A stretch of 64,000 nucleotides of DNA, from positions 5,516-69,515 of the forward strand of contig JBAQUG010000497.1 of NCBI GenBank assembly GCA_049297395.1, written 5' to 3'. Position numbers and translations under genes: made by a program. Below are positions 16,064 through 62,681 of the stretch, piece after piece. Each line of letters begins with the position of its first letter. Positions within the stretch are counted from its first letter, which is position 1. The DNA is from Victivallales bacterium (lineage in GTDB: Bacteria > Verrucomicrobiota > Lentisphaeria > Victivallales > GWF2-50-93). The notes beneath the pieces are model-generated. The model saw nothing but the letters and a program-made list of their open reading frames with translations, ran no database searches and was not told the origin of the DNA.

Positions 16064-16078
16064 AATTTTTCCCTCCGC

Positions 16079-20272: not shown

Positions 20273-20355
20273 CGTCATAATCCCTTCGTTTCTGTTAATA
20301 TATTTTTTTAAAAACATCTTTGCTTAATCGAACCATTCAATGATGCGTCTCTTCG

Positions 20356-23300: not shown

Positions 23301-24198
23301 ATTCCGGAACGCGTGGCAGATTGGTAGTCGTGATCATGTCGACGCCGCGCCGGCGCAGCATGATCAATGCGTGCGGAAGGGTGTGGGTGCCGAAATTCAT
23401 AGGGTATTGGATGCCCTCGGTCATGGCTCCCTCGGCGCTGATCCCGTTGTCCAGGAATTCACGAAGTTTCGCGGCCGCCGCCGCCGCAGTAGGAGGGAAA
23501 TACCCGTCCTCCCCTTCGATGGCGAGGTCGCAGAATAGCTGTCCTATTGCGCATAGGCATGTCCAGTTGGTGCAGTTGCGGCCGTTGGCCATGGGACCGT
23601 CCAGCCACCAGGAGGAGGCGTACATGTCGAGGGAAGGCTTGCCGACCATCGAGGCGAGGATGCGCCGCGACCGTCCGCGTTCCTCGTCGTTCAACAGTTC
23701 ATACAGCCAGTCGTAGGCCAGGGCCGACTCCATGTCGCCCCAGTTCTCCTCGGCCTTGAGTTCGCCGTCAGGAGGGAATCCCGACATCCAGATGCGGAAC
23801 ATCTCCAACGCCATGCGACCGTCCTCCTTGTCGCCGGTGATCTGATAGAGCAGGGCGGCTTGCCGGAGCTGTGGCCGGAAACCGCTCCACTGTTTCCGGC
23901 ATTCCTCGAGCCAAGCCGGGTTCATCTTTTTCAACTCTTCGATGATGTTTCCGGCGAATGCACTGCCACGCAGATTCTTCACCAGTTCCTTGCCGACCGT
24001 CGTCTCCGCCCTGGCCCGGATGGCCGGAAGATCACCCTTGGAGAAAAGCAGGCGTGGATGTGTTCCTGCCGGGAGCGGGGATTCCCCGATGGACTCGACG
24101 GGGGCGTCTGCAAAAAGTGAAATGGAACTTGAAAAACAGATGGCGCCGGCGGCGCATGCCGCGGCCACCCATTGACTTGAGATCCGCATTTTCTCCAT
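20356..24198 (-). CDS. Secreted polysaccharide lyase, heparinase II/III-like (alpha/alpha toroid + beta-sandwich), with Ig-like repeats and the shared C-terminal module
   Basis: HPRLLFSKGDLPAIRARAE at the N-terminus. NCTNWTCLCAIG is an NW block. RAGHTHADQGSFCLASNGTCFIADSGYGNYSSRDHNIVHIDGKAQ is the Hepar_II_III signature pattern. Signal peptide MEKMRISSQWVAAACAAGAICFSSSISLFADA. Confidence 0.7.
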   Translation of the reverse strand: MEKMRISSQWVAAACAAGAICFSSSISLFADAPVESIGESPLPAGTHPRLLFSKGDLPAIRARAETTVGKELVKNLRGSAFAGNIIEELKKMNPAWLEECRKQWSGFRPQLRQAALLYQITGDKEDGRMALEMFRIWMSGFPPDGELKAEENWGDMESALAYDWLYELLNDEERGRSRRILASMVGKPSLDMYASSWWLDGPMANGRNCTNWTCLCAIGQLFCDLAIEGEDGYFPPTAAAAAAKLREFLDNGISAEGAMTEGIQYPMNFGTHTLPHALIMLRRRGVDMITTTNLPRVPEWLAYEALPWGYEGFDYNKSNGEFQSAAFASFIGKELGPMGRWVYQNSVKAGLGVLPDTTVALINGWPEEKAGDRSALPPGRWFADRGLVFCRNGWGVDDAVFFFNTSPLRAGHTHADQGSFCLASNGTCFIADSGYGNYSSRDHNIVHIDGKAQEQIEGGSDAFIRSVDFSSYADILDSDLKLAYDRVLDGDIIGPWHWRPYNPVRQADRRCLFLRGASGPVVLVADDLRADDQEHEYDWLARTVAGNTLRVDGRRFTIQERFGGKVLRSMTNGAAMAWRADRVAGGVYHGWALVRGEPFVQSWCSNTFVVNGISVAAAFGRGAYRQGWNWLPILPGGKAEITIADGSPLRFELICGSGGRVAAAVFTRDQTWTPGDDLPVSGDPFIVFTAEDAGPADANRPPWEKIDTRRGILDGVFLGNQNVKLNVDRAKTTGYPVLHAVQRGINGRFLSLLAPHSENDGRSIELPRDGDGQMALVRSAAGVDLVGGSVNGVPVKGELQTDASMASVSFLSRNQSVPIGYAAVNGSLLICRGIEYVRSGNGVFHVSNDGTDLVVRGTPGAVARCLRLGATQLVRNGVRSPLPSGEVVTISIPSLPAKWEVSISPDGRRVDVTGDGPLPLRVEAAKAVQLTVNGIGRYFVRPEKNSPFLQAVLWNGSDLYRYRDELSASELLPAMKQTKAVKMVEASSLDPKLPKTKVLVSEDGVFEMSLTPPGPGKYRLVVETFVSGAQTVEAQISISGKSVAGIRSEPGRLNTARTDVVIKESPCPFMIKGPAVLALAGLRLEPVYRDLPAPAWRFIGPFKSGFAPGGKEAEAVRAAMSTVYGPEKEINFEAVYKGMDDKDLKWDNRDDTSAPYMQSGLNFTHILKLPRGGVCFAVTFINSPDDRSSQLVLSCDWWANAYINGELVDSERAASQVQQDGASFTSTNATCARIRLKKGVNTLLVKCHGGSGGSRFAAQIIDPGDLGYSASKDKFPEQKH
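20359..20913 (-). other. Shared C-terminal jelly-roll module, copy in the lyase
   Basis: WRFIGPFKSG...YGPEKEINFEAVYKGMDDKDLKW...INSPDDRSSQLVLSCDWWANAYINGE...RLKKGVNTLLVKCHGGSGGSRFAAQIIDPGD. Confidence 0.7.
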
Positions 24199-24305
24199 CC
24201 TTCCATTTTAAATTTTTCTTGAACTCAAACCCATTCATCCAACAATCCATCCGTCATCCCGTGGAATGACTGTGTTCCAGCTCCATTCCTTGCGCGATAT
24301 ATTGA

Positions 24306-24314
24306 GTATATCAT
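24306..24314 (-). promoter_or_regulatory. Extended -10 element TGATATACT (internal promoter candidate for the lyase gene)
   Basis: The minus strand reads ..catgttacaTGATATACTcaat. This 9-mer is identical to the three full promoters at 30016, 54088 and 62468. There is no good -35 (GCCGAA at the 17-nt spacing). Confidence 0.4.
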
Positions 24315-24515: not shown

Positions 24516-27500
24516 CTATTTTCCCGTCTCCGGCGGTGTCGGGCTGTACTTCTGGTCTCCCGGATCGCTGACCGCGAAATTGGCATTCCACCCATCCCGG
24601 CCTGTCGTTGTCTTCACCAGCAGCTTGTTCCATCCGGCGTTCAACAGGATCGTCTTGCTGGCGAATTTCCCCCAGGGGCCGGAGATGTCCAGTACCGGCT
24701 CGTCGTTCAGCCAGACCCTGCCATCCCAATCCATGGCATAATACAATATGACGTTTCGTCTGCCAGGGCTGTATATCCACGAAGCAAGATACGCGATCCC
24801 GCTCCCCGGGATGCCATAATTTTTGATATGGACATAGGGGTAGTATTTTTCCAGCAGCTTGACATACTTGTCATCGCCGATGTCAATCTGCCTCCACTGG
24901 ATAGACTTGCCATCCATGCCCTTGTATTCGGAGGAGAGGCTGATCTCCTTTTCGGGAGGGAACGTCGCTTTCGCATAACATTCGCTTCGTTTCTCCCACG
25001 TGTACGGCTTCCCGTCCTCCACATTAAAATCAAAGAGTCCGATCGCGCTCCACTTCTTAATCGTGACAGGAGGCAGGAACGCCATTTCCATCGAACTGAT
25101 CGCCAGTCCGTTGGCGCCTTCGCTGGTCAATGTCATGTCATAAAGACCGCTGTTTATTGACAGCGGCACCGACAGGACATTGCGGATATGCCTTGTCTCG
25201 CCGTAGCCCTCTCCGATTGTTCCAACCGTCTTTCCATTGAACCCGACCTTGATCGGGCCGTAACCCTTTCCGAACAACCCCCTTATCCGGAGTTCGAACT
25301 GCCCCGCTGTCGCCGTGCTCGCATGGTAAACCGTCTTGCCGGACGGTATCACGACAAAATCCTCCTCCGTGTATTGAGCTAATTTTGCGAGTTTCGCAGC
25401 ACCCTCCGGCTTGAAGTTGTGCTGGAGCAGATATCCGGCATTGCCGGAGCAGACGGCATAGTCCTCCATGCCATCCGGCCAGCCAAAGGCCTCCAGCCAC
25501 CATCTGCGCTCCGAGGCGATGCGCTGGATGAGAAATCCGGCCTTCAGATACTCTTTGTCACGCCAGGCCTTATCTACAGGATTGAATGAGCCGGCGAATG
25601 TCTCAATCGCATCGCGTCTGTCCCATTCGCAGGTGTCCTTCACTCCAGCCGCGCATCCGCCCGCGCCGACGAAGACATGTTTCATGTCCCCGGCGGCGGC
25701 GTTTATTTTCCGCAGGAACTCAACCTGTTTGCCAATCCGTTCAATCTCGTCTGGCCGCACTTGGATATTCATCCCTTCAATTGATGTGATTCCCTTTGCC
25801 GCGAAAAGCGCAGGCATGAACGGATCCAGCGACACATTGACCACATTCCCCTTTGCCGCGAGCGTTTCGCCGCTGACAAGATCTTTCACCCCGTCCGCGT
25901 CCTTGGGCAATGAAATCTCAAGTTCCCTCCTATAGGGCGTCTGGTTGACCAGATAGAACACGAGCTCTTTCCCATGAAATATCCAACCGGTCTTGTCTTG
26001 TCTCTGGGCCGACCAGCAGACGACTACCGGCTGATCTGAGCCTTTACCGGCGAACCGCTCATACTTCAAGTCCGGGATCGCCCGGAATACCCGCACGAAG
26101 GAGCGCAGTCCCTCGTCAACTGGCGAAATGCCCCAGAGTTCACCGCAGACTATCCTGTCAAGCTGTCCTGCCGCCAGCGCTTTGGCCGGCTGCTCCAGCT
26201 GGCGGGGATGTCCGATCAATGCGAAGTCATGGCACAGATTCCTAATATAAGCCGTATCGCCAGGCGTAAAGTTCTCAATATTGCCGCGTATCTCCGCCGG
26301 TTCACGCACATCGAAGTTTGCGAACGCGACAGGGTCGAATCCATTCAATTCAATGTTCTCGTCATTGCCGCCCCTGAATTTCTCCCATTTTTCAAAACCA
26401 ATATCCCGGCGCCCGGCAAGGCTGGCATAATCAATTCCGCTTTCACGTGCAGGCGCTATTTTCCATGCGGCGTAGGCGCCGCTGTACAGCCGGGCGGAAG
26501 GCGCATTGCGGCGCAGTTCCGCCACTCCTTCCTCAAGCAGGCTTTCTACCTTCTGGCAGCGCCAGTCAATCCATTTGTCGCGGAGATCGTCCTTGAGCAG
26601 GTGTTCCCGGCGGAGTTTGAACCGCTCATCCCCGGCATTGGCCACACCGATGGAAACTCCTGTCTCCTTTTCAAAGAGAGACACCGTAAAATCATCGTAC
26701 CCGTTGGAGTCCGAAATATAAAAGGGGTCGAATCCGGACTGCCATGGAGTCCACCACCTCAGACGCACCCCGGCAAAGGACGGGAAGCCGCCGTACTGCC
26801 TGCTGATTTCTCCGAGCACGGTGGTGAAATACTTGCGTGACGCAGGATGCGCAGGATTGAGAATGCGATGCGTCCATCCGCTTCCTCCGTCGTAGCACTT
26901 CCCATTGGAGTCGGTTACGAAAAGTTCGTCCGCCGCCTCATATCCGCATTTGCGGGCGAAATGCTGGACGGCTCCTTCCGACAATCGGGAAACCATCAGG
27001 TCCGCCACCATCCGGGCATTGTTCTTCTGTCCGGTCATGAGCAGCATCTTGAAAATATCGCGTTCAATGGGGTCGACCAGCCGCCCGCGGCCTCCGGTAC
27101 TGTAAACATCCTGTCCTTTGGGAAGATGGGGGACGCCCTGCAGGAAAGTCATGTTGTATGACAATGCCGGCACCATGATCAAGTTATCGCCCCGATATCG
27201 GGACAGGCGGGTGTATCTTTCAGCTCCGGCATGCAATGCACGCCAATCCTGATAGAATCCTCCTCTGAGATTGCTGAGCAGGCCGGATATAAAATCATTG
27301 CCCTCCCAAAGCGGAGGCATTGTGCTTTCAAATGCCCATATATTGGTTTGTTCGCTGTCGGCGCCGAATTCCCTTTTCTGCTCCCAGCCGCCTGCCGGTT
27401 CCGGCAATGGAGGAAGACCTTCCGGCAGCTCATACAGTTCAATTTTTGAAATGGCACCCTCCCTGTTCAACCTGGAATTATGGTTGCCGTTGTGGCAGAC

Positions 27501-29294
27501 CGTAAAAACATCGACCGCCCCGCTGTTCGGCCACACAAGGAATGAAAGGGTGCTGAAGGGACCTGAGACGTCCGCATTTCCGGAGTCAAGCATGGAGCCA
27601 TTGGCCCAGCTTGTAACCTGATCAATGGCCTGTACCACGACTATCCTTCTCTTGTCGTTGGGAATTGTAGCCACTACAAGATGCGCCTTCCCGGGCTTTT
27701 TTACTTTCAACGTATATGCAAACCAGTCCGGAGAGATATAACTCGCCCCCGATTTTTTTTCCCCTTCCCTGACACGGCGGTATTTCTTGGTTTCTGCGTC
27801 TTTTATATAGTAGCATCGCCTGTCCAGTTCGACGCCGGCATTGCCGGTAAGGCGGTAACGCCCAACCGGGCTGTCCACCACCCGGCTCGTCCCGTTGTCG
27901 CGGAACTTATGCTCCGCATCCTGCGTCAATGTGCAGTCAACGCTGTCAACCAGCTCCCTGCGGATCTCGCCAGTGGAAGCGCCGCCTTTGGGCAACGGCA
28001 TGGGGGTCGGGTCAATAACCACGAACGCCCAGGGTCCGTCGATGATCTTGCCGGATGCGTCCTTGACCGTGTATTCAAATGCGCCTTCAGTATTGCTGGG
28101 ATAGCTTATGCTTGCTGACAGGTGGCTGGCTTCCTTCGCGAGTTTGCCTTCCCCGGTCCAGACTGGTGTCTTGCTCCCGCGCTGTTCCTTCACCTCGAGG
28201 AGGAAACGTTCCCCGGCACCGACCATTTTCTCCACTTTTATTGTCAGTGGTTCGTCTTTCGCCAATATCATGTCATCGCGATCCATGCCGTTCTTGTCGA
28301 CCGCATGGATACCGATGTCAACCGTGTCGCCGGAATGGATTTTGGAAATGCCGATACGCATCTGCGGCATGAGCTCATCCATTTTATCCACCCAGGGATA
28401 CGGGGAATCGACACGGTAAATTGCCAGCGTGTGCTTTCCTGCCTTGAGATGGCGCAACGCTCCCGCCCGATGGAGGAAATCAAGGGCGTAGCCTTGTTTC
28501 ACGCCAGGATCAAGACGGCGTTCCCCCTGGAGATAGAACAGTGGCTTATCGTCAAACCAAGCCTTGAACCAGCGAGGCGGATCAATAGGACCGATTGCTA
28601 TTTCATACAGCCCCTCGTCTTTGATTTCAAAACTGGTAGTGCGCTGGTTGAAGATTTCATCCCGCCATTTTTCCAGAAGGATATCCGGGCGCCATGCCAG
28701 CTTTTCCTCCGAGTCCTTCACCGTGTGCGACAACGCCTCGGGGGGAATCAGTTTGAAATCGGATGCACCAGGCTTTTGCCACTTTATAACAGCCTTCATC
28801 AGTTCGCGGCTTGATTTCCTTGTCGCATCAGGTCTGGCGCCGTCATATTTCAAATAGAGGGTAATGGGAACAGTCCCGGCATCCAGCCGGATCTTACCTG
28901 TGCCATCAACCGGACACTTTATCCCATTGACTTTCAACTCCGACTCCACTTCCTCAATCTTGAATTTATATTCACCTTCTGTAGGGATGGAAATGCTGCT
29001 ACGGCAGGCCATGGACCAGCCCTGGGCACGATGGAACTCCGCGCCTTTCGCCGGATCGCTGTTTGCCGCCGGCCACTTCAACTTATTGATATCCGCACTG
29101 ATATCCGCGCCATTGGCGACAAAACTGCCGCCGTAAAACCAGAAGGTCGGCTCTCCATAGTAGTGGACTACCCACCCCGGGGAACTGGACTGTTGTGCGT
29201 CAGGCTCAGCAGCATGACAAAAGAGCAGAGCGCCAAACGAGATGCAAATGAGGATCAATTTCCATAACGGTTTACTTCCTGAAAGGTTCTCCAT
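24516..29294 (-). CDS. Giant secreted GH-like protein, divergent paralog A5, with N-terminal PA14-like domain
   Basis: Signal peptide MENLSGSKPLWKLILICISFGALLFCHAAEP. PA14-like region GWVVHYYGEPTFWFYGG...WSMACRSSISIPTEGEYKFKIEEVESELKVNGIKC. Family blocks: FAYTLKVKKPGKAHLVVATIPNDKRR, GAISKIELYEL, NGYDDFTVSLFEKETGVSIGVANAGDERFKLRREHL, WIDWRCQKV, VFYLVNQ. Confidence 0.8.
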   Translation of the reverse strand: MENLSGSKPLWKLILICISFGALLFCHAAEPDAQQSSSPGWVVHYYGEPTFWFYGGSFVANGADISADINKLKWPAANSDPAKGAEFHRAQGWSMACRSSISIPTEGEYKFKIEEVESELKVNGIKCPVDGTGKIRLDAGTVPITLYLKYDGARPDATRKSSRELMKAVIKWQKPGASDFKLIPPEALSHTVKDSEEKLAWRPDILLEKWRDEIFNQRTTSFEIKDEGLYEIAIGPIDPPRWFKAWFDDKPLFYLQGERRLDPGVKQGYALDFLHRAGALRHLKAGKHTLAIYRVDSPYPWVDKMDELMPQMRIGISKIHSGDTVDIGIHAVDKNGMDRDDMILAKDEPLTIKVEKMVGAGERFLLEVKEQRGSKTPVWTGEGKLAKEASHLSASISYPSNTEGAFEYTVKDASGKIIDGPWAFVVIDPTPMPLPKGGASTGEIRRELVDSVDCTLTQDAEHKFRDNGTSRVVDSPVGRYRLTGNAGVELDRRCYYIKDAETKKYRRVREGEKKSGASYISPDWFAYTLKVKKPGKAHLVVATIPNDKRRIVVVQAIDQVTSWANGSMLDSGNADVSGPFSTLSFLVWPNSGAVDVFTVCHNGNHNSRLNREGAISKIELYELPEGLPPLPEPAGGWEQKREFGADSEQTNIWAFESTMPPLWEGNDFISGLLSNLRGGFYQDWRALHAGAERYTRLSRYRGDNLIMVPALSYNMTFLQGVPHLPKGQDVYSTGGRGRLVDPIERDIFKMLLMTGQKNNARMVADLMVSRLSEGAVQHFARKCGYEAADELFVTDSNGKCYDGGSGWTHRILNPAHPASRKYFTTVLGEISRQYGGFPSFAGVRLRWWTPWQSGFDPFYISDSNGYDDFTVSLFEKETGVSIGVANAGDERFKLRREHLLKDDLRDKWIDWRCQKVESLLEEGVAELRRNAPSARLYSGAYAAWKIAPARESGIDYASLAGRRDIGFEKWEKFRGGNDENIELNGFDPVAFANFDVREPAEIRGNIENFTPGDTAYIRNLCHDFALIGHPRQLEQPAKALAAGQLDRIVCGELWGISPVDEGLRSFVRVFRAIPDLKYERFAGKGSDQPVVVCWSAQRQDKTGWIFHGKELVFYLVNQTPYRRELEISLPKDADGVKDLVSGETLAAKGNVVNVSLDPFMPALFAAKGITSIEGMNIQVRPDEIERIGKQVEFLRKINAAAGDMKHVFVGAGGCAAGVKDTCEWDRRDAIETFAGSFNPVDKAWRDKEYLKAGFLIQRIASERRWWLEAFGWPDGMEDYAVCSGNAGYLLQHNFKPEGAAKLAKLAQYTEEDFVVIPSGKTVYHASTATAGQFELRIRGLFGKGYGPIKVGFNGKTVGTIGEGYGETRHIRNVLSVPLSINSGLYDMTLTSEGANGLAISSMEMAFLPPVTIKKWSAIGLFDFNVEDGKPYTWEKRSECYAKATFPPEKEISLSSEYKGMDGKSIQWRQIDIGDDKYVKLLEKYYPYVHIKNYGIPGSGIAYLASWIYSPGRRNVILYYAMDWDGRVWLNDEPVLDISGPWGKFASKTILLNAGWNKLLVKTTTGRDGWNANFAVSDPGDQKYSPTPPETGK
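24519..25052 (-). other. Shared C-terminal jelly-roll module, divergent copy in A5
   Basis: WSAIGLFDF...FPPEKEISLSSEYKGMDGKSIQW...SPGRRNVILYYAMDWDGRVWLNDE...LNAGWNKLLVKTTTGRDGWNANFAVSDPGD. Confidence 0.6.
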
Positions 29295-29343
29295 TTTTCA
29301 TTTCCCCTTGTTTTTTATTCAAAATTTGATTTGTTTAAATTGC

Positions 29344-29955
29344 TTACAAATCACCAGGAACAGGATAATCCTTGCTGGTAAGATAATAATTCATATCCCA
29401 GGAAGGAAAGTTACCGTCGAAATTCCCTTCAGGATTGTCGGGACATGTGAAAAACTTTGTATGGCCGCCATTGGGCTTCAGGTTTTTCGTGATGTCCAGG
29501 CCTACAAGAGGGGCAATCTTAAACATCCAATTGTATGCTTTTGCGGTCGAACCGGGAAGATTCGGGGTCGGGGTCGTATCGGCAATATGCTCGTTCCAGT
29601 CCCCCGCATAAAGAATATTGGCGGCGTCCATCTGCCGCAGGGTGTTTTTACAGCTAATTTTCTTCGCTGTATCCTTCGCGCTTTTCAGCGCGGGCAGCAG
29701 CATTGCAGCAAGAATTGCGATGATCGCAATCACCAATAAGAGCTCAATAAGCGTAAACACTTGTTGAACTTGCCTCCGCTTCCGCTTCGGGCAGAACTGC
29801 CCGCTGGCTGCGGCTGGTACGGTCACCAGGGGTTCTATTATCCGCCGGAGCAATAAGATGAATGCAAGATGCCGGATGCAGGTCGCTAGATTAGAATGTC
29901 TGGCGTCCTGGCTCCTGGAAAAAAGCTTCTTCCCCGCCCCAGTCTTGGTATCCAT
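29344..29955 (-). CDS. Prepilin-type N-terminal methylation domain protein (short pseudopilin-like), P2; true start uncertain
   Basis: [45 protein letters not shown]. The ATG at 29955 leaves about 70 aa before the FTLIELL motif, with no closer ATG. The next gene (A5) starts 49 nt after the stop. A consensus promoter sits at 30016-30044. Confidence 0.75.
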
Positions 29956-30015
29956 CGGACACGCCCTCCAATATTAGGATATACAGGTATAAATATATTA
30001 TATCAATATAAAGTC

Positions 30016-30044
30016 AGTATATCAATGTATCATGGCAAAGTCAA
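30016..30044 (-). promoter_or_regulatory. Sigma70-type promoter TTGACT-N17-TATACT with TG extended -10 (drives the P2-A5... operon)
   Basis: The minus strand reads TTGACTttgccatgatacatTGaTATACT. The spacer is exactly 17 nt. The predicted TSS is near 30009, 54 nt upstream of ATG 29955. Confidence 0.65.
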
Positions 30045-45547: not shown

Positions 45548-45910
45548 ATACTTCTTACAAGCAGATTCGAATGCCCATAGCCAATACCAGCTTAACGGCT
45601 ACGTAAACGCCCTCCGGCAGTGGGTGTATTGAGGCCAATAGGTTTTTTCATGCAACAACAGTATGTTGGGCTTTCCTGCCCTGAGCCTGTCGAAGGGAGC
45701 CCGACAATTCTTAGATAGGCGGGTTAAAACCCACCTTACTTATGAGGCAAAAGCACCCAGCTTAACGCTTACCTCCGGCATTCCGCCCACTAGGAAATAT
45801 GTCTTGAGAATGTCAAGTATTCGTTGGTATAATGTGAAAATATCCACGTTTTGCCAACGTATAACGCGTGTACGGGGATCCCTTGGATGGTTTAAGCGGG
45901 ACCTTAATAG

Positions 45911-48900
45911 TTACTTTATCATGAACTTTACGATCCGCTGGTTGCCGACATCCGCGACATAAAGCCACTCAATTCCTTTTGCGTCCTTGATCGCGGCAAT
46001 CCCGGTCGGTTGGCGGAATGACATGCCGTCACGGTCGTCGAGAGTTCCAAACTTGCCATAGGACTTGAGGAATTTACCTTTTGAGTCAAGACAGACGAAA
46101 TTGTTTCTGGCGGGTTCGGTCAGCCAGACATGTCCGCTGCTGTCGGTGGTGATCCCGATTGGCTGGCGGAACGGGGTTGAACCATGTCCCTGGTGCGGAT
46201 CGAATTTGTCCTGCCAGATGATTTCAGCTTTTTGAGAGAGGCAGGTGACCGAGCGTGTTCCGCCGCCTGCAATGAATATTTTCCCGTCGGTTCCCAGGTG
46301 GAGTCCGTAATCGCCCCATGGCAGGGTGCCGCCGAGATGGATCAGTTTTTCCCTCTTTCCGTCGTCAGGGGAGTATCGGAAAATTGTCACAGTCGGTCCG
46401 CCAGCTTTAACTTCCGGATCGTCGAGCCGGAGGATCAGTCGCCCGTCGGATTCGACCTCGAGATCTGTAGGCGAGTACGACCAGTTGTCAAAGAGCGGCT
46501 TGTCTCCATTGAGCATTTTGGGTTTGTCCCAGCCGGTTGCGGTTTTCGCGCAGCGGTATACGTTCATGCCTCGGCTGTTGCTGTAGAAACCGAAATTGGA
46601 TGCCAGGTAGATTGAACCGTCCGGCGCCAGCGCGAACGACTGGATATCGGCATTAGGAAGCCCGGGATCATAGGCGATCTCGATGGTATCCGGAGTTCCA
46701 GGAGTGAGACGCATCAGCTTGTTGTGCGCCAGATAGTAGATCTTTCCACCGTTCACCTTGAGCTGGGTGGTTCCCTTCAAACTTTGTGTCTGCATTGATG
46801 AAAGTCCCGGGATCAGATCGCGTCTCGCTTCCAGTCCATTCCTGAGGATGAAATATTCCCTTGCGACAACACCGTTTGTTTCCTGCTGGAATCCTATGGC
46901 GATGCCAAGATCAGGGCTGATCGCAAGCGCGGTTGCCTTGGCTGGAAGGTTGAAGGACCATGATTTTGCGAATTTCGCATCTGATCCTCTATCAAAGCAG
47001 AGTATGGCCGTACCGTCGGAGTTCGTTGCAAGCATCTTCGAGCCGTCAGGAAAAACTGCGAGCTTCCCAAGCTTTTTAAATTCGTCCGAGGTAAGGGATT
47101 CAATTTCCTTGCCTGATGACGAAAACACTTTGATCCCGTCTGCCGAGACGAGGTAGATGTTGTCCTTTGCGTCCACTGCGCCGCCGGAGGCGGTGGTGTC
47201 CGCCAGCTTGTTGCTCGGCGTGCCGTTGACAGAATAGTCGAATGACATTGTGCCGTCTTCACGGAATTTATAGACGCCTTTCATGTCCGCAGGTTCGGGG
47301 CAGGTGAGATATGGATTGCCCCATTTGTCTATTGCCAGCAGCGAACTTCGCATTCCCGGCACCGGGAATCCGTATCCCCATTCGAGACGGAGAAGCCTTC
47401 CGGTGTTCGTCTCGTAGAGTGCGGGCTGGGTATGCCATGACATCGCGGCCAGACGCTTGTCCGGAGTGAGCCTCAGTGACCATGTGTCGAGGTACCTGGG
47501 ATTGGCAAGCTGCGCCCATCTCGGATCTCCTTCATCAGGCGTGTGGGCAAGATTGAGGGAGAGGCATTTCAGGTAGTTGCCATCCCTGTCGAAAAGCATT
47601 ACCTGCTCATGCGACGCAGCCCAGAGATTGCTTTCGGTGTCATATGCCAGATCGGTGATCGTTGAAAGGCGGCCGCGCACGTCGCCGATTATCGACTGCA
47701 AACCAAGGAAATCGACTTTGGGCGCATCCTTCACATCGGTGAAACCGTGCGGGATCTTGCGTTCGAGAAGGCCGCTCGGGAATCTGCCGTTGATGTCGTA
47801 TACTCTGACCAATGATGAGCGCTCGAGATTTCCCTTCGCCTGCCAGAACCGTCCTTCGCCGTAGGCCCTGATGGATTCATTCAGCAGGCGCATCGCCTCG
47901 CGGGCGTCGGGTTCGGAAAGTTCCGGAGCAGTCCGGCGGTAACGCAGATCATTGAGGAGATCCTTGGCGAACGTGATCATCGGGAGGAGTTTAGCCGATA
48001 TTTCCGGAGGCACCTCAACAGAACAGTTCTTAATCGAGACATTGCCTCCTTCAGCGCGGAACGAGCGCAGCATGAACGGTTCGAGTTCGAATGACAATGC
48101 CTTTCCGTCCTTGAGGGTGAGAGGTTCGCCGCCTGCGGCAGGGACGACTTTGGAGGCGTTTGCCGTTGAAAGTTCCACCTTCACATTTTTCGGCAGCCTG
48201 TTGACAGCATAGAAATAGAATCCGGGACTGATTTTCAGTTTGTCGGCCTCCTCCTTCTTCACTTCGCGTGTCCAGACTGCGACCGGATCGCGCGCCTTTT
48301 CGAAAGGAATGAACTTCAATGCTGGCAGCGCGCGGAATTCGCGGAGGAACGGGCTTAAAACCGGAGGTGTGCCGAACATCCATCCGTTTCCGCCGTTCAC
48401 AAAGAAGCTGGTGTCGGAATCCGCCATGGCGATGGCGTAGAGCTCGCGTTCATTTATGCCGCTAGGAGAGCTGCAGTCGAAGGCGCAGTAGCCTTTTTTG
48501 CCGCCCAGCTTTTCCCAGTCCAGGTTGTCATTGACCTCGTAGTAGTCGGTATAGATTGAAAAACCGCGGTCACCGAGTCGGGCGACAGTTTTGACATCCT
48601 CCGCATAGAGAGGATCGGACTTTTTGGCATCGCCGACCGGGGTTGAATATCGGCGCCCGTATCCGCCGCCCTGCACGATTACAAATCCGTCTTCGGCCGC
48701 ATAGCGGCGGTAGTCCATCCCGATCTCACGCATCTGTCCGAGTATGTCCTGGCTGTAGGCCTCTTTTGGATCCGGACCGAAATAGTTGAGGAACAGTTTT
48801 GCATCCGGTTTAGCCTGCCTGATCCTGTCGCGTAGCCTGCAATGGTAGTTAAATATTTTGTCGCAGCGCCAGCCGATCCACTTTTCACGCGCCGTTCCGG

Positions 48901-50983
48901 TTAGGAAGTCGAAGCGCTGGCGGAATCTTTTCGGATCTCCCGCCTTGCCGGGAACCTTCATGCCCGTATCCTTTTCAAACTGCGCAACTGTCCAGTCGTC
49001 ATATCCCCAGTTCAGGCTGGGCAGGGCGTTCCATCCCTGCCACTGCCAGGAGAGCATGAGGCGCGTAGAAATTCCCGCGAATGATTCGCAGTCACCGAGG
49101 CGGTCGGCTAGTTCGCCAAAGACGGAAATGTACATGTCCTGGATTTTAGGATGCAGGGCGTTGTAGCCGGCGGCCTTCCACCCGAACGAAGTCCCGCCAT
49201 CGCGGTTACGGATGATGTATTCCTCGGCAGTCGGCGCAATATGCAGTATCGATTCCTTCTTTCCATCATTTTCCTTTTCTTCATTCCATACGCCCATGAT
49301 GTGCTTGTCAAACCAGGCCTGTCCGCTGAGATGGAATTCCGCGACATATTTGCCGTGGTATTTTTCGGCCATCAGCGCGACCACCCTTGTCATGTCGTAC
49401 GATTCGCTGAAATATCCGTCGAGTATCTTGCTGGGATAGGCGTTGTACTGGTAGACGTTCGCGGTCGGGAACATCAGGTTGGCGCCGAGATACCTGTTCC
49501 ATTGGCCCCAGCGGTCGAGAGTGGTCAGATGTTCAATGAGCCCTGCTGGTCCTTCTCCCGCCTTTGCGCCGAAGAAGCGCATCCATCTGGGTCCCTCCTC
49601 GAAATAGAATCCCATGACGCGGCCGCTGGCAGGACCTGATGGACCGTCTGGCAGCGCGGAGTCGACCCTGTCGATCTGTATCTTTGCGGCGGCCGCCCTG
49701 TATCCAGGCACCAGGTTCAGGACCGCGACTACGATTCCTTCTTTCTTAAGAGGATAGAAAAACGCCTCGTGGGTCAGCAGGGAATTTGTCAGAGGATATT
49801 GGTCTCCGGTTTCCACGCCACCGGTCAAAGTGATGCCATTTCTGCCATCGGCGCCATCGTTGGTCCAGAATCCCATGCTGCGCCGCTCGTCGTCGGGATA
49901 AGTGACTCTCAAACGGTAAAGATGGTCCGTGTCCGGCAGGTCAAACTTATAGGAGAATCCATCGGTAGCCCAGTGATCCGACGTTCCTTTCCCAGACGAT
50001 TCACGGTACTTGCCAAATGGCGATTCGACAATTCTGCTTTCGCCGTCCTTTTCAAAAAATGTCTTGTCCTTTTCGACGGACTTTCCGTTGATGGTCTGGT
50101 TCACGCAGTCGATTTCAACAACCGTAGAAGTCTTTAGTTCGGCGGCCGGCGCCGGCGGATTCTTCGTGTCGATCACGATGAACATCCCGGCCTTGAGATC
50201 GGCGGGCCGTGAAAGTTTCTCCCCGGACTTGATGAGGAGCTGGAAGACTCCCTGCTGTGGGAACTCTATTTCAACTTCCTTTGAGATCGGTTCGGCGCTT
50301 ACGGGGAACTCCACTGTTCCGCATGGAGTGATCTCCTTGGTGTTCTCATTGCGGACGACGAGATCGTAGGATGCAGGGACCGTGGTTCCGCCGGAAAACG
50401 AAATCCTGATCTTTGTGCCGGCGCGGACGACGTTGTGGCCGACACCGGTTGCGCGGATGCAGCCTGCAGCTTCACCGTCCGTGCTTCTAAGCTCCCACTT
50501 GCTCGGCAGTGCTCCTGGAAAGCCCAGGCGGCGGATCCGGAGGGTATGCTTCCCTTCCTTTAGATAGAGGTTGGCCTCCTTCCACCAGGTGCCTTTTTCC
50601 CCTTTCCGGGATGCCAGGTCACTGTCTTCCTTATGCGAATATGTCAGGAGGAAAAGAATCCTGCCATCGAGGTAGATATCCCGGCTCCAGCCTGAGACGC
50701 CGTCTTTCTCCATCAGTTCGAACCAGCCGGATTTGGCGATAGTGAAATCATATTCGACCCAGCCGCCGGCGCCAAGGATGGTTCCCGCAACCTTCTGATC
50801 CTCCATCGACGAGATCCAGCCCTTCACTCCTGGCTTGAGCAATGCTGCAGGCCATTCCAGTTCCGAACGGTCATAGCTCCAGACATCGCGGGTGATGACA
50901 GGTTTTGTCTCAGCACCCTGAGGGTATACGGCAGATGCTGAAAGGAACACTGATGCAGCGATCATCAACGCTTTTTTTATCAT
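45911..50983 (-). CDS. Giant secreted GH-like protein, paralog A3, with a C-terminal NHL beta-propeller in place of the jelly-roll module
   Basis: MIKKALMIAASVFLSASAVYPQG is the signal peptide. Family blocks: FSYKFDLPDTDHLYRLRVTYPDDERR, NWGYDDWTVAQFEKDTGMKVPGKAGDPKRFRQRFDFL, FYFYAVNR. The C-terminus ..IEWLYVADVGNQRIVKFMIK is NHL-type. The ATG lies 1 nt after the GH29 stop. Confidence 0.85.
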   Translation of the reverse strand: MIKKALMIAASVFLSASAVYPQGAETKPVITRDVWSYDRSELEWPAALLKPGVKGWISSMEDQKVAGTILGAGGWVEYDFTIAKSGWFELMEKDGVSGWSRDIYLDGRILFLLTYSHKEDSDLASRKGEKGTWWKEANLYLKEGKHTLRIRRLGFPGALPSKWELRSTDGEAAGCIRATGVGHNVVRAGTKIRISFSGGTTVPASYDLVVRNENTKEITPCGTVEFPVSAEPISKEVEIEFPQQGVFQLLIKSGEKLSRPADLKAGMFIVIDTKNPPAPAAELKTSTVVEIDCVNQTINGKSVEKDKTFFEKDGESRIVESPFGKYRESSGKGTSDHWATDGFSYKFDLPDTDHLYRLRVTYPDDERRSMGFWTNDGADGRNGITLTGGVETGDQYPLTNSLLTHEAFFYPLKKEGIVVAVLNLVPGYRAAAAKIQIDRVDSALPDGPSGPASGRVMGFYFEEGPRWMRFFGAKAGEGPAGLIEHLTTLDRWGQWNRYLGANLMFPTANVYQYNAYPSKILDGYFSESYDMTRVVALMAEKYHGKYVAEFHLSGQAWFDKHIMGVWNEEKENDGKKESILHIAPTAEEYIIRNRDGGTSFGWKAAGYNALHPKIQDMYISVFGELADRLGDCESFAGISTRLMLSWQWQGWNALPSLNWGYDDWTVAQFEKDTGMKVPGKAGDPKRFRQRFDFLTGTAREKWIGWRCDKIFNYHCRLRDRIRQAKPDAKLFLNYFGPDPKEAYSQDILGQMREIGMDYRRYAAEDGFVIVQGGGYGRRYSTPVGDAKKSDPLYAEDVKTVARLGDRGFSIYTDYYEVNDNLDWEKLGGKKGYCAFDCSSPSGINERELYAIAMADSDTSFFVNGGNGWMFGTPPVLSPFLREFRALPALKFIPFEKARDPVAVWTREVKKEEADKLKISPGFYFYAVNRLPKNVKVELSTANASKVVPAAGGEPLTLKDGKALSFELEPFMLRSFRAEGGNVSIKNCSVEVPPEISAKLLPMITFAKDLLNDLRYRRTAPELSEPDAREAMRLLNESIRAYGEGRFWQAKGNLERSSLVRVYDINGRFPSGLLERKIPHGFTDVKDAPKVDFLGLQSIIGDVRGRLSTITDLAYDTESNLWAASHEQVMLFDRDGNYLKCLSLNLAHTPDEGDPRWAQLANPRYLDTWSLRLTPDKRLAAMSWHTQPALYETNTGRLLRLEWGYGFPVPGMRSSLLAIDKWGNPYLTCPEPADMKGVYKFREDGTMSFDYSVNGTPSNKLADTTASGGAVDAKDNIYLVSADGIKVFSSSGKEIESLTSDEFKKLGKLAVFPDGSKMLATNSDGTAILCFDRGSDAKFAKSWSFNLPAKATALAISPDLGIAIGFQQETNGVVAREYFILRNGLEARRDLIPGLSSMQTQSLKGTTQLKVNGGKIYYLAHNKLMRLTPGTPDTIEIAYDPGLPNADIQSFALAPDGSIYLASNFGFYSNSRGMNVYRCAKTATGWDKPKMLNGDKPLFDNWSYSPTDLEVESDGRLILRLDDPEVKAGGPTVTIFRYSPDDGKREKLIHLGGTLPWGDYGLHLGTDGKIFIAGGGTRSVTCLSQKAEIIWQDKFDPHQGHGSTPFRQPIGITTDSSGHVWLTEPARNNFVCLDSKGKFLKSYGKFGTLDDRDGMSFRQPTGIAAIKDAKGIEWLYVADVGNQRIVKFMIK
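45914..47722 (-). other. NHL/beta-propeller region of A3 (last 603 aa), homologous to the free-standing protein 5814-7484
   Basis: LQSIIGDVRGR aligns with FQKIIGDMRGR at the start. At the end, FRQPIGITTDSSGHVWLTEPARNNFVCLDSKGKFL..FRQPTGIAA..WLYVADVGNQRIVKF aligns with FGAPRATAIDSHGRIWVADTAKNKVFCLSPRGKLL..FDNPSAVAI..FLYVGDSGNQRIVKY. Confidence 0.75.
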
Positions 50984-50984
50984 A

Positions 50985-53219
50985 TCACCGGGCTTTCATC
51001 TTTATGTCTTCCATGTCGTTTATCCGGCATGTGAACCAGTTGGCACAGCTGCCGCGATGACATTTGACGAGGAGGATATTGCTTCCTTTCCTGAGGTGTA
51101 TTTCCGCCGGGCCGGGCTTCCATCCGTTGAACTGCGAACCGTCCTCGGCCATGGCCGAAGCTGGACGGCATCCGGCGAGGGGACTGCCATTGATCCAGGC
51201 TTTCGCCCACCAGTCGCAGCCGATAAGAAGGAGAGCCTTGCATTCCTTTGAGCTTATAATTTCCGTCCTGGCATAGCATACCCCGCTGTGCCTGGAACCG
51301 CAGCGGTATGGAAAGTCGACACCAATGTCCGAATGTTCGCCTTCGCGAAGCTTGGAATGCTGCCACCTGACTTTATCTTTTCCAATTCCCTGATAGGATT
51401 TTTTCAAGTCGAATTCCTTCTCCGGGGGGAAAACCGTGGACATTGCCTTGCGAACTTCGCAGACAGGAGCCTGCGGCCCGAATGCCGTGGGGAACGGTCC
51501 GATGGTCAACCAGTTCTCTGAAGGAATGGGTTTCCAATGGGGCGTGACTTTCAGAGCGTAGATTCCGAGTTTCTCAATTGATTTTATCAACAGCCTGTGA
51601 TGTCCATGTGAAAGGTGCTTGTTCTCCAGGATTACAGTATCAGGGCATCCTCCGTAACGCAGGAGGCCCACAGGTTTCATCAGATCACCGTCAAGACGTA
51701 TCTCAATGGAAGATGCTTTTTTCGTGATCAGTCCGACGGCTATGTCGTAGACCCCGTCCGCCGGCACTGCAATATTCAAAATTGGAAACAGGCTTTCCGG
51801 CAATGAAAAAACAGTCCGTCCAGTCCAGCCCGGACACCATTTGGACGAGTCGGAGCCGACAAGGGTTCTGGAATTTTGGATGAGAATTTTAAGCGGCCTC
51901 CCCTCTATGACAGGAGGTTCGGGCGGTGAAAAACGGTCGCTGTCCTGGCCGAGTACCGGAGCCTCCCCCTTTTTCATGCGGATACCGTTCCTGGCATGGC
52001 CTAGCGTATCGGCGGGGATGCCGAAAGTCTTTGATTTAATGGAAAGAACCTCAGGTAGATTGTCATGGGAGATCTTAGGCAGGCCGCCAACATCTATTGT
52101 CATGTCCGATTCCGTTTTTATTTTCAGTTCTGAATAGCCTTCCAGGATGCAGGCTTCGAAATTCCTGGAATTGAGACCTTCCAGCCGGATGTTTTTTCCT
52201 GTGTTTCTGGAAATGAAGAAGAAGGCCTTCTGTCCTTTTGATGTTACCGGACCACAGGCGTGGTTGGCTTCGCTGTATGCGGTGCGCTGCGTGCCGTAAA
52301 TGGCGTCGCCGTTTGTCTTGAGCCATTTCCCTATTGTCTCGAGTCGTTTTGTAAATTCGGGCTGGATCGTGCCATCGGCCTTTGGGCCGACATTGAGGAG
52401 GAGGTTTCCTTCAAAGCGTGCCGCGTAGATGAGGCAGTCAATTACTTCCTGCGGGGATTTGAAATTCCTGTCCGAAGGGTTGTATCCCCAGCTTTGATTG
52501 AGGGTCATGCATGCCTCCCAGCGCTGTCCGGCCGCCGGTGCGGTGACGTGCTGCTCTGGCGTGATGAAATCCTCATGAAGACCCGAGCGATCATTGATCA
52601 ATATGTCGGGCTGTAGACGGCGGACCATTGCATTCAGCTCCCTGGAGCGCCAGTATTTCGCCTGCATTTTGTCGTCCTGCATCCCCGGTACGACTGCGCC
52701 GTCATACCAGAGCATGTCTATCCTGCCGTAATTGCCCATGATTTCACGGACCTGTGCATGGGATTCCTTCACCATTGCCGCCCAGCCCTTGGGATCGGCT
52801 GTGGGTCCAGTAAGGATTGCAGGCCATTGCCAGCTCATGACAGAATGATACAGTCCGATCCGGAGCCCGGCCCTGCGGCATGCGTCGACGAATTCCCTCA
52901 CGAAGTCGCGTCCCGCCGCAGTTTTTACGGAATTGTAGTCGCTCACCTTGCTGTCATACATTGCGAATCCGTCATGATGCCTGGTAGTGAATACCATGTA
53001 CTTCGCACCGGCCCTTACTGCGAGATCCGCCCATTCTTCGGCATTGAACTTATCGGGGGGATTGAACTGTTCTGTGAGCCTGTTGTATTCCGGCTTCGGG
53101 ATCTTCTCCTTGAACATCACCCATTCCCCGCGCCCCCATATCGAGTAGATCCCCCAGTGTACGAATATTCCGAATTTTGCTTCATTGAACCAAGACTGTC
53201 CCGTCTTTCGATTTTCCAT
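50985..53219 (-). CDS. GH29 alpha-L-fucosidase with beta-sandwich linker and the shared C-terminal jelly-roll module; no N-terminal signal peptide
   Basis: WFNEAKFGIFVHWGIYSIWGRGEWVM, MVFTTRHHDGFAMYDSKVSDYNS and IDMLWYDGA are canonical GH29 blocks. The N-terminus MENRKTGQSW lacks a hydrophobic segment. Confidence 0.85.
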   Translation of the reverse strand: MENRKTGQSWFNEAKFGIFVHWGIYSIWGRGEWVMFKEKIPKPEYNRLTEQFNPPDKFNAEEWADLAVRAGAKYMVFTTRHHDGFAMYDSKVSDYNSVKTAAGRDFVREFVDACRRAGLRIGLYHSVMSWQWPAILTGPTADPKGWAAMVKESHAQVREIMGNYGRIDMLWYDGAVVPGMQDDKMQAKYWRSRELNAMVRRLQPDILINDRSGLHEDFITPEQHVTAPAAGQRWEACMTLNQSWGYNPSDRNFKSPQEVIDCLIYAARFEGNLLLNVGPKADGTIQPEFTKRLETIGKWLKTNGDAIYGTQRTAYSEANHACGPVTSKGQKAFFFISRNTGKNIRLEGLNSRNFEACILEGYSELKIKTESDMTIDVGGLPKISHDNLPEVLSIKSKTFGIPADTLGHARNGIRMKKGEAPVLGQDSDRFSPPEPPVIEGRPLKILIQNSRTLVGSDSSKWCPGWTGRTVFSLPESLFPILNIAVPADGVYDIAVGLITKKASSIEIRLDGDLMKPVGLLRYGGCPDTVILENKHLSHGHHRLLIKSIEKLGIYALKVTPHWKPIPSENWLTIGPFPTAFGPQAPVCEVRKAMSTVFPPEKEFDLKKSYQGIGKDKVRWQHSKLREGEHSDIGVDFPYRCGSRHSGVCYARTEIISSKECKALLLIGCDWWAKAWINGSPLAGCRPASAMAEDGSQFNGWKPGPAEIHLRKGSNILLVKCHRGSCANWFTCRINDMEDIKMKAR
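50988..51512 (-). other. Shared C-terminal jelly-roll module, copy in GH29
   Basis: WLTIGPFPTAF...FPPEKEFDLKKSYQGIGKDKVRW...CKALLLIGCDWWAKAWINGS...FNGW...HLRKGSNILLVKCHRGSCANWFTCRINDMED. Confidence 0.7.
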
Positions 53220-53250
53220 GTCTGATTATTCTATCCTTTTCATTAAGATA

Positions 53251-53976
53251 TTAAAATTCCGCTGCACCTGCATCTTTTATAAGCCATTTCGACGCCTGGG
53301 GAAATGGATACGCTTCTGGTAGGCCAGGAAACACACTGGCTCCAAGAGCCTGGGCATGACCGTCAAAGAAAAGGGTGTTGCTTCTGCCTCCGAACCATAC
53401 GCCGTTTGATGCCTGCCTGCCGCCGTGACGAAGTGAAATATTGCCGGTAATGTAGAACTCCGTCCACTTGAGACGAAGCTGGCCTGCGTCATTGCTGTCC
53501 ATGAAATTGATTTTGGAGCTTGGCGATTTGAACTCCGAGAGCTTGCAGGTTATTCCAAGGTTGGGGGAATCATCATTGCTGTTGACGTGTGCATTCTGCC
53601 CCCAGGAAGGATGGTTTCCGTTGAAAATCCCGGTCGGATTGTTCGGGCACACGAGAAAAATCCCCGCAGGCTGCTTGTCCATCGGTTTGCAGCTCTTGGA
53701 GGAGTCGAAGCCCAGGTATTCGGCGATCCTGACATATTCAGTGCAGCCCGCCTGGCTGTAAGGAAGGGGAACGTCTTTCCTGTCGGCAATATATTCGTTC
53801 CAGTCCATTATATACATTGCCTCAGCCGCGCCAACCGACTTGAGCTTGTTGATGCAGTCGATCTGCTTGGCCAGTTCCTTTGCATTCTTCAGCGCGGGCA
53901 GCAGCATCGCCGCAAGGATTGCGATGATCGCAATAACCACAAGCAATTCGATCAGTGTGAACAGATGATTTTTCAT
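53251..53976 (-). CDS. Prepilin-type / DUF1559 pseudopilin-like protein, P4
   Basis: [48 protein letters not shown] starts at ATG 53976. The ORF-track start at 54048 is a TTG. C-terminal [13 protein letters not shown] is a DGH box. GH29 starts 31 nt after the stop. Confidence 0.85.
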
Positions 53977-54087: not shown

Positions 54088-54116
54088 AGTATATCACTAT
54101 ATCATAAACATGTCAA
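54088..54116 (-). promoter_or_regulatory. Sigma70-type promoter TTGACA-N17-TATACT with TG extended -10 (drives P4-GH29-A3)
   Basis: The minus strand reads TTGACAtgtttatgatatagTGaTATACT. The spacer is 17 nt. The last 16 nt are identical to the promoter at 62468-62496. Confidence 0.7.
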
Positions 54117-54117
54117 G

Positions 54118-54131
54118 ATCCATGCATGGAT
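54118..54131. promoter_or_regulatory. Perfect 14-bp palindrome ATCCATGCATGGAT abutting the -35 box; operator/activator-site candidate
   Basis: Read directly. It lies 1 nt upstream of the TTGACA box of the P4 promoter. Confidence 0.4.
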
Positions 54132-56814: not shown

Positions 56815-57690
56815 ATGGAATGTAATTTTAAGGAAATAACTTATACTTTTATGGGAAGACTGGATAGGCATGACCTGGAGCAGCTCAGCAGCTGCCTTGA
56901 GCTGGCGCTTCTTGAAGCCTCGGAAGTGTCATTTACTTTTACCGGCCGCAACCGGCACTCGTTCAACAGGATTTTCCTGGTCCTCCACGAAAGAGGCGGA
57001 AACAATTTCATCCGCAATCATACCCCAGGATCGGATCAGCGGCTGAAAATGACCAGGAGGATGATTTATTTCATGCCTGGAAATACTGATCTTGAATTCA
57101 GCTTCAATGCCGACATGCGCTTCATATCATTCCACTTCCACCTGAATCTGTTCTCCCATTTCGACGTGTTTTCAGGACAGAGGACCTGCGCAAGCATTCC
57201 TGATGAAAAAGGGATCTGCGGGGAAATGTCCGACATTCTTAATTCTTCCGGTTATGATTTACAGAACCTATGCCGCCTGCAAAGCATGCTGATCGCCCTT
57301 GCAGGGGATTTCATCGAACCCGGCAATGCCGGCCTGGACAGGCTGGATTTCCTTAACAGCAAGTATTCCGCAGTTTTTGAATACGTCAGGAATAGCGCCG
57401 ATGCCACGACTGGCATCGATGATCTTGTGGAAGCCGCAAAAATGTCAAGGGATTCGCTTTCCCGTGAATTCTCCAGGGATTGCGGCATCCCTCTGAAGAA
57501 ATACTTGAACCGCAACCTGATCCGGAAAGCGGAGAAGCAGCTGCTTGAACCAAAGGCGACTGCCCGAATGGTGGCGGAAAAACTTAAATTCAACAATGAA
57601 TATTATTTCTCACGCTTCTTCAAGAAGAACACCGGCACGACAACGAGGGATTACCGGGAGCAGATGCAGACACACAGGATGATGGATTAA
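56815..57690 (+). CDS. AraC-family transcriptional regulator
   Basis: C-terminal dual HTH: IDDLVEAAKMSRDSLSREFSRDCGIPLKKYLNRNLIRKAEKQLLEPKATARMVAEKLKFNNEYYFSRFFKKNTGTTTRDYRE. It is divergent from the GH116 gene, with a 73-bp gap. Confidence 0.9.
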   Translation: MECNFKEITYTFMGRLDRHDLEQLSSCLELALLEASEVSFTFTGRNRHSFNRIFLVLHERGGNNFIRNHTPGSDQRLKMTRRMIYFMPGNTDLEFSFNADMRFISFHFHLNLFSHFDVFSGQRTCASIPDEKGICGEMSDILNSSGYDLQNLCRLQSMLIALAGDFIEPGNAGLDRLDFLNSKYSAVFEYVRNSADATTGIDDLVEAAKMSRDSLSREFSRDCGIPLKKYLNRNLIRKAEKQLLEPKATARMVAEKLKFNNEYYFSRFFKKNTGTTTRDYREQMQTHRMMD

Positions 57691-57963: not shown

Positions 57964-57983
57964 AGTTATTCCTAGACATTATT

Positions 57984-58008
57984 GAGGCAATTTAAAATTG
58001 CCTCTTTT
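57984..58008 (+). terminator. Palindromic hairpin GAGGCAATTT-A-AAATTGCCTC followed by TTTT (+ strand terminator candidate)
   Basis: A 21-nt perfect palindrome at 57984-58004 is followed by TTTT at 58005-58008. On the minus strand no U-run follows. Confidence 0.5.
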
Positions 58009-58023
58009 GATCTGATTGCTTAG

Positions 58024-58093
58024 GTTGGTGTTCACAACTTTAGTGTGTCTTGGTATTCAATATGTAAGACACGCTGAAGCCGTGAACACCAAC
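58024..58093. repeat. Nested perfect hairpin (12-bp outer, 7-bp inner stem) just downstream of A4
   Basis: GTTGGTGTTCAC (58024-58035) pairs with GTGAACACCAAC (58082-58093). The inner stem is GTGTCTT (58045-58051) with AAGACAC (58066-58072). It is flanked by the similar direct repeats gatctgattgcttagg and gatcttattgcttatg. Confidence 0.5.
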
Positions 58094-62467: not shown

Positions 62468-62496
62468 AGTATATCACTATATCTCTATGGAGTCAA
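62468..62496 (-). promoter_or_regulatory. Sigma70-type promoter TTGACT-N17-TATACT with TG extended -10 (drives A4)
   Basis: The minus strand reads TTGACTccatagagatatagTGaTATACT. The spacer is 17 nt. The predicted TSS is near 62461, about 30 nt before ATG 62430. Confidence 0.7.
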
Positions 62497-62572: not shown

Positions 62573-62595
62573 GTAGCACAGGCATCTTGCCTGTG
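62573..62595 (+). repeat. REP element (GTAG + CACAGGCA-tct-TGCCTGTG)
   Basis: aatGTAGCACAGGCATCTTGCCTGTG. It has the same consensus as 13797-13819. Confidence 0.75.
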
Positions 62596-62658: not shown

Positions 62659-62681
62659 CACAGGCAAGATGCCTGTGCTAC
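62659..62681 (-). repeat. REP element, inverted partner
   Basis: The + strand reads CACAGGCAAGATGCCTGTGCTAC(at). It forms an inverted doublet with 62573-62595, with a 63-nt spacer. Confidence 0.75.

Follow-up and report, generated by a model that had tools for sequence, protein, structure and literature searches.

The promoters closest to those described here are the extended −10 ('TGn') promoters recognized by sigma-70 in E. coli and sigma-A in B. subtilis, which likewise combine a TTGACA-like −35 hexamer, a 17-nt spacer, a TG dinucleotide at −15/−14 and a TATAAT-like −10 hexamer. A spacer of 17 nt is optimal for sigma-70, and extended −10 promoters tolerate a missing −35. It is also a known concept that 'mobile' or propagated promoter families can be copied within a genome. 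Our literature search found no promoter mapping for the Lentisphaerota or Victivallales, and nothing relevant on the extended −10 9-mer TGATATACT either.

Here we analyse this 9-mer and the elements associated with it in a 64,000-nucleotide stretch of DNA from an uncultured Victivallales bacterium (the window). The arrangement that we find suggests, at the level of sequence, that Victivallales use E. coli-like −35 / 17-nt / extended −10 promoters. It is from the letters that we infer promoter activity, start sites, the origin of the promoter family and the places where regulators would bind.

Predicted promoters in the window

Three sites have the full arrangement TTGAC(A/T)-N14-TGATATACT, that is, a TTGACW hexamer, a 17-nt spacer, TG at −15/−14 and the −10 hexamer TATACT (Table 1). 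The original prediction had quoted these promoters with a spacer of exactly 17 nt, and the letters were confirmed at all three positions. Their −35 hexamers match TTGACA in 5–6 of 6 positions; over both hexamers the full sites have 10–11 of 12 matches, and they are the top-scoring minus-strand sites within 44–64 kb. A spacer-proximal sequence was said to be common to two of the sites; the 16-mer GATATAGTGATATACT is the same at 54088-54103 and 62468-62483 and is matched in 14 of 16 bases at 30016-30031. A fourth site was thought to share the extended −10. It does carry TGATATACT, at 24305-24313, one base off the 24306-24314 originally given. There, GCCGAA stands in place of a −35 at 17 nt and a TTGCCA precedes the −10 hexamer by 29 nt; this element is probably a −35-independent extended −10 promoter. 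All four sites have A at position 2 and T at position 6 of the −10, with TG one base upstream. At the 30016 locus, a second promoter-like site is found 19 bp downstream of the first promoter, so close that its −35 and the −10 of the first share bases.

Table 1. Predicted promoters, palindromes and associated genes in the window. Boxes on the minus strand are given from their 5′ to their 3′ end.
Feature	Position	Strand	Details
Predicted promoter of P4 / GH29 / 1690-aa operon	54088..54116	-	Reads TTGACAtgtttatgatatagTGATATACT, 54116-54088
Boxes of the 54088 promoter	−35 TTGACA 54116-54111; TG 54096-54095; −10 TATACT 54093-54088	-	17-nt spacer
TGATATA, first direct-repeat copy in spacer of the 54088 promoter	54104-54098	-	
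Predicted promoter of 1419-aa 'A4' gene	62468..62496	-	Reads TTGACTccatagagatatagTGATATACT, 62496-62468
Boxes of the 62468 promoter	−35 TTGACT 62496-62491; −10 TATACT 62473-62468	-	17-nt spacer, end GATATAGTGA
Predicted promoter of P2 / 1592-aa operon	30016..30044	-	Reads TTGACTttgccatgatacatTGATATACT, 30044-30016
Boxes of the 30016 promoter	−35 TTGACT 30044-30039; −10 TATACT 30021-30016	-	Spacer end GATACATTGA
Second promoter-like site, TTGATA-N17-TATAAT with TG	29997..30025	-	TGATATAAT at 29997-30005
Extended −10 element TGATATACT	24305..24313	-	Upstream of heparinase-like / 1412-aa / 672-aa operon
Perfect 14-bp palindrome ATCCATGCATGGAT	54118..54131	.	One base upstream of the 54088 −35; unique in window
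Inverted repeat GATATA-N5-TATATC	24296..24312	.	Spans −10 and predicted start of the 24305 promoter; unique in window
Prepilin-like P4 / GH29 fucosidase / 1690-aa A3 operon	45911..53976	-	54088 promoter
Genes of this operon	P4 53251-53976; GH29 fucosidase 50985-53219; A3 45911-50983	-	
A4, 1419 aa	58171..62430	-	No Pfam domain; 62468 promoter
Prepilin-like P2 and A5 (1592 aa)	24516..29955	-	P2 ORF 29344-29955; A5 24516-29294; 30016 promoter
Operon downstream of the 24305 element	14045..24198	-	Heparinase II/III-like, A-family and 672-aa genes
Genes of this operon	Heparinase II/III-like (1280 aa) 20356-24198; A-family (1412 aa) 16079-20317; 672 aa 14045-16063	-	
Five giant paralogs, 1390–1690 aa	1638-5810; 16079-20317; 24516-29294; 45911-50983; 58171-62430		21–37% identical

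The number of sites is far above expectation. The window holds four copies of TGATATACT (0.13 expected), a count that none of 100 shuffles gave, and three exact copies of the full pattern, set against 0.09 expected even when two mismatches are permitted. With up to two mismatches there are five matches, the three exact ones included, and 0 of 100 shuffles equalled five. Variants of TGATATACT with one mismatch fall mainly within coding regions; with the exact sites excluded, they are about as frequent as expected by chance. All four TGATATACT sites are intergenic, lie on the minus strand and face the next downstream gene, with about 38–112 nt on the same strand between the −10 and the first start codon; at the 62468 promoter, 31 nt separate the predicted transcription start from the A4 ATG. 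Rfam and tRNA scans of the window gave no matches, and we found no unusually stable fold in the four 5′ leaders.

Within the window, TGATATACT precedes only large polysaccharide-degradation operons. The remaining genes also serve polysaccharide degradation, together with LacI, GntR (43168-44232) and AraC (56815-57690) regulators and a PIN toxin, and TGATATACT is found before none of the regulators, the toxin-antitoxin pair or the GH116, GH31 and AXE1 genes.

The giant proteins form an uncharacterised family with little or no Pfam signal, apart from weak GHL10 matches and, in one member, NHL repeats. They have their C-terminal ~300 aa in common with the heparinase-like protein; of this region, about 170 aa recur in the 672-aa protein. 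Several of the giant genes adjoin prepilin-like (N_methyl/DUF1559) genes. In two prepilin-like ORFs, 29344-29955 and 38339-39325, the methylation motif lies 60–100 residues into the ORF, which may reflect long leaders, wrongly assigned starts or truncation of a copy. In P2 the ATG far upstream comes with a good ribosome-binding site, and the C-terminal DGH motif of P1, P3 and P4 is missing.

The core is that of a generic strong promoter

As controls we scanned viral contigs for TTGAC-N15-TGATATACT, which gave at least 128 unique cores. Among the matches listed, the sixth −35 position, which the search left free, is A or T in 116 of 128 cores, showing that the control cores are real promoters. 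Two phage contigs (L107 and L134) contain four such promoters apiece, with conserved boxes and variable spacers. The occurrence of the same core in at least 128 viral promoters and in a related contig described below indicates that TGATATACT, its −35 and the spacing of 17 nt are generic features of strong housekeeping promoters. The resemblance between the window sites therefore comes mostly from each being near the same consensus. The original prediction had named a generic housekeeping promoter as the finding that would speak against a special motif; this holds for the −35, the spacing and TGATATACT, and does not hold for the block within the spacer, which is present in 0 of the 128 listed controls. 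A further difference is seen at −17, where T occurs in 84 of the 128 listed control promoters compared with 0 of 6 sites of this lineage. The local consensus is thus not simply the textbook one, a point against reading the sites as wholly canonical.

A conserved block within the spacer

The spacer block reads GATA(T/C)A(G/T), with GATATAG at two of the full sites and GATACAT at the third. It yields the direct repeat TGATAYA-N-TGATATA, which has a period of 8 bp and lacks dyad symmetry. The more general form RATAYAN before the TG occurs in none of the 128 listed control promoters. Over the seven positions adjacent to the TG we observed 17 of 21 identities, a value equalled by 93 of 200,000 random triples of listed controls. 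Conservation beyond the hexamers, inside the spacer, had been claimed from the sequence and does exceed chance by both of these measures. Each of the three P/A-type operon promoters that can be seen in the window has the block; it is absent at the fourth site (24305), at the P-gene promoter of the related contig L018 and in all other relatives fetched. The arrangement of GATATA also varies, being direct with an 8-bp period at three sites and inverted with a 5-bp gap at 24305.

The strict motif TTGAC-N9-RATAYAN-TGATATACT was sought in one genome from each of 185,579 species. Single matches were found in 13 unrelated genomes, none of them from the host lineage, a lineage that is not in the collection. 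None of the 185,579 species representatives, Victivallales genomes included, has two strict copies in one genome. Metagenome contigs, a collection that likewise excludes the host lineage, gave 29 single matches, about 15 of them distinct, and none of the 29 is similar to the window by blastn. Three copies within 33 kb, against single copies elsewhere, mark the block as a property of this genome.

One strict-motif match, in a Phycisphaeraceae MAG (L006 6814-6843, minus strand), also contains a direct repeat, GATATAC-TGATATAC. It precedes a gene pair for an AbrB-type antitoxin and a PIN toxin, and the ATG lies 7 nt past the −10, so that the transcript is apparently leaderless.

Related contigs

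The lineage sequence covered amounts to about 76 kb, consisting of the window and one related contig (L018). Orthologous promoters were sought via homologues of P4 and of the GH116 gene. Among the relatives fetched, the 54088 locus is kept only in two same-species contigs from other samples (L016 and L017), where the promoter is unchanged and the adjacent leader has two substitutions. The organism is present in samples SRR28062683, SRR28062512 and JGI 3300014208. L018 is not syntenic with the window; it encodes a P homologue (76% identity at the protein level, 78% at the DNA level) and is the sole relative fetched with TGATATACT. One copy, in the arrangement TTGACT-N13-TGATATACT with a 16-nt spacer, stops 9 nt short of the ATG of a regulator gene of the GntR family, showing that in this lineage the core is not confined to giant-protein operons. 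The second copy lies in a long intergenic region before an orphan unit with a terminator-like hairpin, and the P gene is preceded by TGATATAAT. The GATATAG block is found neither at the two TGATATACT sites of L018 nor at its P-gene TGATATAAT. Over the lineage sequence covered, TGATATACT occurs in six copies in about 76 kb. The more distant relatives (L020-L025 and L055-L060) have no TGATATACT, and TGGTATAAT and TGATATAAT are in use among them.

The promoters are not relics of paralog duplication

The original prediction offered recent promoter duplication along with the paralogs as one explanation of the shared sequence. The genes do not bear this out, as the A proteins are only 21–37% identical, P2 and P4 51% identical, and the flanks do not align. 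The promoter cores, by comparison, are identical in 24–27 of 29 bases pairwise, and the four upstream regions show no alignment outside this 29-bp core. With paralogs at 21–51% identity and flanks that cannot be aligned, a neutral promoter relic would be unrecognisable. The core is therefore selected or recently copied, and not a neutral leftover of old duplications.

Palindromes near the promoters

Two of the four promoters have palindromes of their own, at 54118..54131 and 24296..24312 (Table 1), which we regard as candidate operon-specific operators. A stock inverted-repeat search found nothing at its thresholds; both palindromes come from a custom script. Their presence suggests operon-specific regulation on a common strong core.

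A third perfect palindrome, the 16-bp ACTTAAATATTTAAGT at 45367-45382, is also unique in the window and lies between a TTGACA and the ATG of a LacI-family gene (44247-45359). The ATG is within about 8 nt of the palindrome, which suggests that the transcript of this gene is autoregulated and possibly leaderless. A near-leaderless layout is seen again at the GntR gene of L018, with the −10 ending 9 nt before the ATG.

Other features of the noncoding DNA

A near-consensus extended −10 promoter, TTGAGA-N18-TGGTATAAT, is present at 45804-45833 (+) in a 550-nt gene-free stretch (45360-45910) and faces the 3′ end of the convergent 1690-aa gene. Downstream of it we found no ORF, Rfam family or tRNA, and it may therefore drive an antisense or small RNA.

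Shared between the window and L018 is a hairpin with a T-run (GAGGCAATTTAAAATTGCCTC-TTTTGA), followed by a segment bounded by inverted repeats (GTTGGTGTTCAC...GTGAACACCAAC). These lie at 57983-58034 (+) and 58024-58075 in the window and at 7769-7821 and 7933-7984 in L018, where an TGATATACT promoter is located about 50 nt upstream. The two copies are 94% identical, above the value for the coding P gene (78%), and could represent a small RNA, a terminator or a miniature mobile element.

Several repeats are also intergenic. REP-like hairpins of the form CACAGGCA-NNN-TGCCTGTG, often followed by CTACATT, occur at 13801-13819, 14006-14024, 62577-62595 and 62659-62677, some of them just upstream of the 62468 promoter. 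An 82-nt repeat with a long G+C-rich hairpin is present at 7490-7571 and 24399-24480 in copies that are 85% identical. One copy is situated upstream of the 24305 element, at a distance of about 90 nt, and the other precedes a GH39-like gene; the repeat probably represents a terminator or an element of the REP type. Long noncoding stretches of the window (63848-64000) and of L018 (7300-7520) also contain G+C-rich intergenic motifs that resemble one another, such as ...GGCGGCGCCA(T/A)AGGCGACCAGGGC...

Discussion

We favour the reading, with a probability of about 0.62, that the sites are canonical sigma-70 promoters of the extended −10 type and make up a small family specific to this genome, and that most of their likeness is shared consensus. 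The housekeeping (RpoD-type) sigma factor of this Victivallales (Lentisphaerota) bacterium would read TTGAC(A/T) through region 4, the TG at −15/−14 through region 3.0 and TATACT through region 2. Transcription would fire strongly about 7 nt past the −10, with predicted starts near 54081, 62461, 30009 and 24299, and at about 29990 for the second site of the 30016 locus, and would yield the operon transcripts for prepilin-like proteins and giant carbohydrate-active proteins. The shared spacer block would mark this family, which could have arisen either through the copying of a core of roughly 16–29 bp to further loci or through convergence of the sites on a local optimum. Copying faces the difficulty that we know of no mechanism that copies a 29-bp core without its flanks. 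A carrier mobile element was considered and rejected, there being no repeat around the core, as was an invertible promoter, for which no flanking inverted repeats were found. Operon-specific control probably resides elsewhere, with the palindromes at the 54088 and 24305 promoters as its likely seats. The restriction of TGATATACT to polysaccharide-degradation operons within the window would also be expected of a regulon, and in this respect speaks against the canonical-promoter reading.

The block could instead be a shared operator, at which one regulator binds TGATAYA-N-TGATATA between the −35 and across the −10, occludes RNA polymerase and so co-represses a prepilin-like/giant-protein regulon. 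The excess of the block over chance, its absence from the listed generic promoters and its presence at every P/A-type operon promoter in view all fit such a regulator, as do an approximately three-fold enrichment of intergenic GATATA (11 observed, 3.4 expected) and the LacI, GntR and AraC regulator genes nearby. We nonetheless consider a shared operator unlikely. With a period of 8 bp, the two copies do not face the same side of the helix, and the block lacks the dyad symmetry that LacI and GntR proteins normally bind. Moreover, the block is missing from the fourth site, from both TGATATACT sites of L018 and from its P-gene promoter, no genome among the 185,579 species has two strict copies, and two of the four promoters have separate palindromes. 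The more specific proposal that the direct repeat is the operator of a new Victivallales regulator, which co-switches the prepilin-like and giant carbohydrate-active operons, seems to us rather improbable; if true, it would give the Lentisphaerota their first regulon, and their first type of operator, for the use of polysaccharides.

The same direct repeat might also reflect overlapping promoters in tandem. In that case its upstream copy (TGATATAGT or TGATACATT) would act, 8 bp upstream, as a −35-independent extended −10, giving two starts per locus and extra polymerase capture. At 54096-54104, TGATATAGT is an extended −10 with one mismatch, the 30016 locus does stack TTGATA-N17-TGATATAAT 19 bp downstream, and one relative (L059) has GATATAAT-TCA-TGATATAAT. 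However, the upstream copy at 62468 is AGATATAGT, without TG, the upstream hexamer at 30016 is TACATT, and occupancy of the upstream copy would clash with the optimally spaced −35, which makes tandem promoters a poor prospect. Six copies of TGATATACT in about 76 kb, the lack of a clear −10 at other transcription units of the window and the absence of T at −17 in the lineage sites, in contrast to generic sites, could be taken as signs of a separate class of promoters, served by a sigma factor that is either alternative or modified in this lineage and that prefers AGTGATATACT. Known alternative-sigma promoters differ in look from the housekeeping type, whereas the −35, spacing and −10 here match the housekeeping sigma exactly, and unrelated bacteria and phages commonly have TGATATACT in their promoters. 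We rejected the alternative sigma classes on the grounds that the motif is of housekeeping type, and hold a distinct class to be very improbable. Chance resemblance among A+T-rich intergenic sequences could account for the sporadic strict motifs in unrelated genomes, but is scarcely credible for the window: 0 of 100 shuffles had four 9-mers and 0 of 100 reached the count seen for the full pattern, only 93 of 200,000 triples equalled the identities in the block, and every site is correctly oriented upstream of an operon. The shuffles and the triple test effectively refute it.

The canonical-promoter reading would be useful for operon annotation and for the choice of promoters in heterologous expression of large carbohydrate-degrading gene sets. 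The spacer block is a cheap, well-defined target for tests of co-regulation; if it proves to mark only a promoter family, the finding is routine.

Among the closest known systems, consensus-type promoters, for example of phage early genes, belong with the cellular TGn class, with TGATATACT and a TTGAC at the same distance abundant in phage contigs, several per genome. Compared with sigma-70 extended −10 controls, the lineage sites differ in lacking T at −17 and, at three sites, in having the GATAYAK block. Propagated promoter families are alike in placing near-identical cores before non-homologous or distant genes with unrelated flanks, but the unit shared here is only 16–29 bp and has no transposon ends, repeats or carrier element. 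A conserved spacer block that overlaps the −10 is also found in the TetR and LacI operators placed between −35 and −10 in the engineered PLtetO and PLlacO promoters, and in MerR-type sites. The PLtetO and PLlacO operators are dyads, whereas the block described here repeats directly, with a period of 8 bp, and MerR promoters have 19–20-nt spacers in place of the 17 nt found at these sites.
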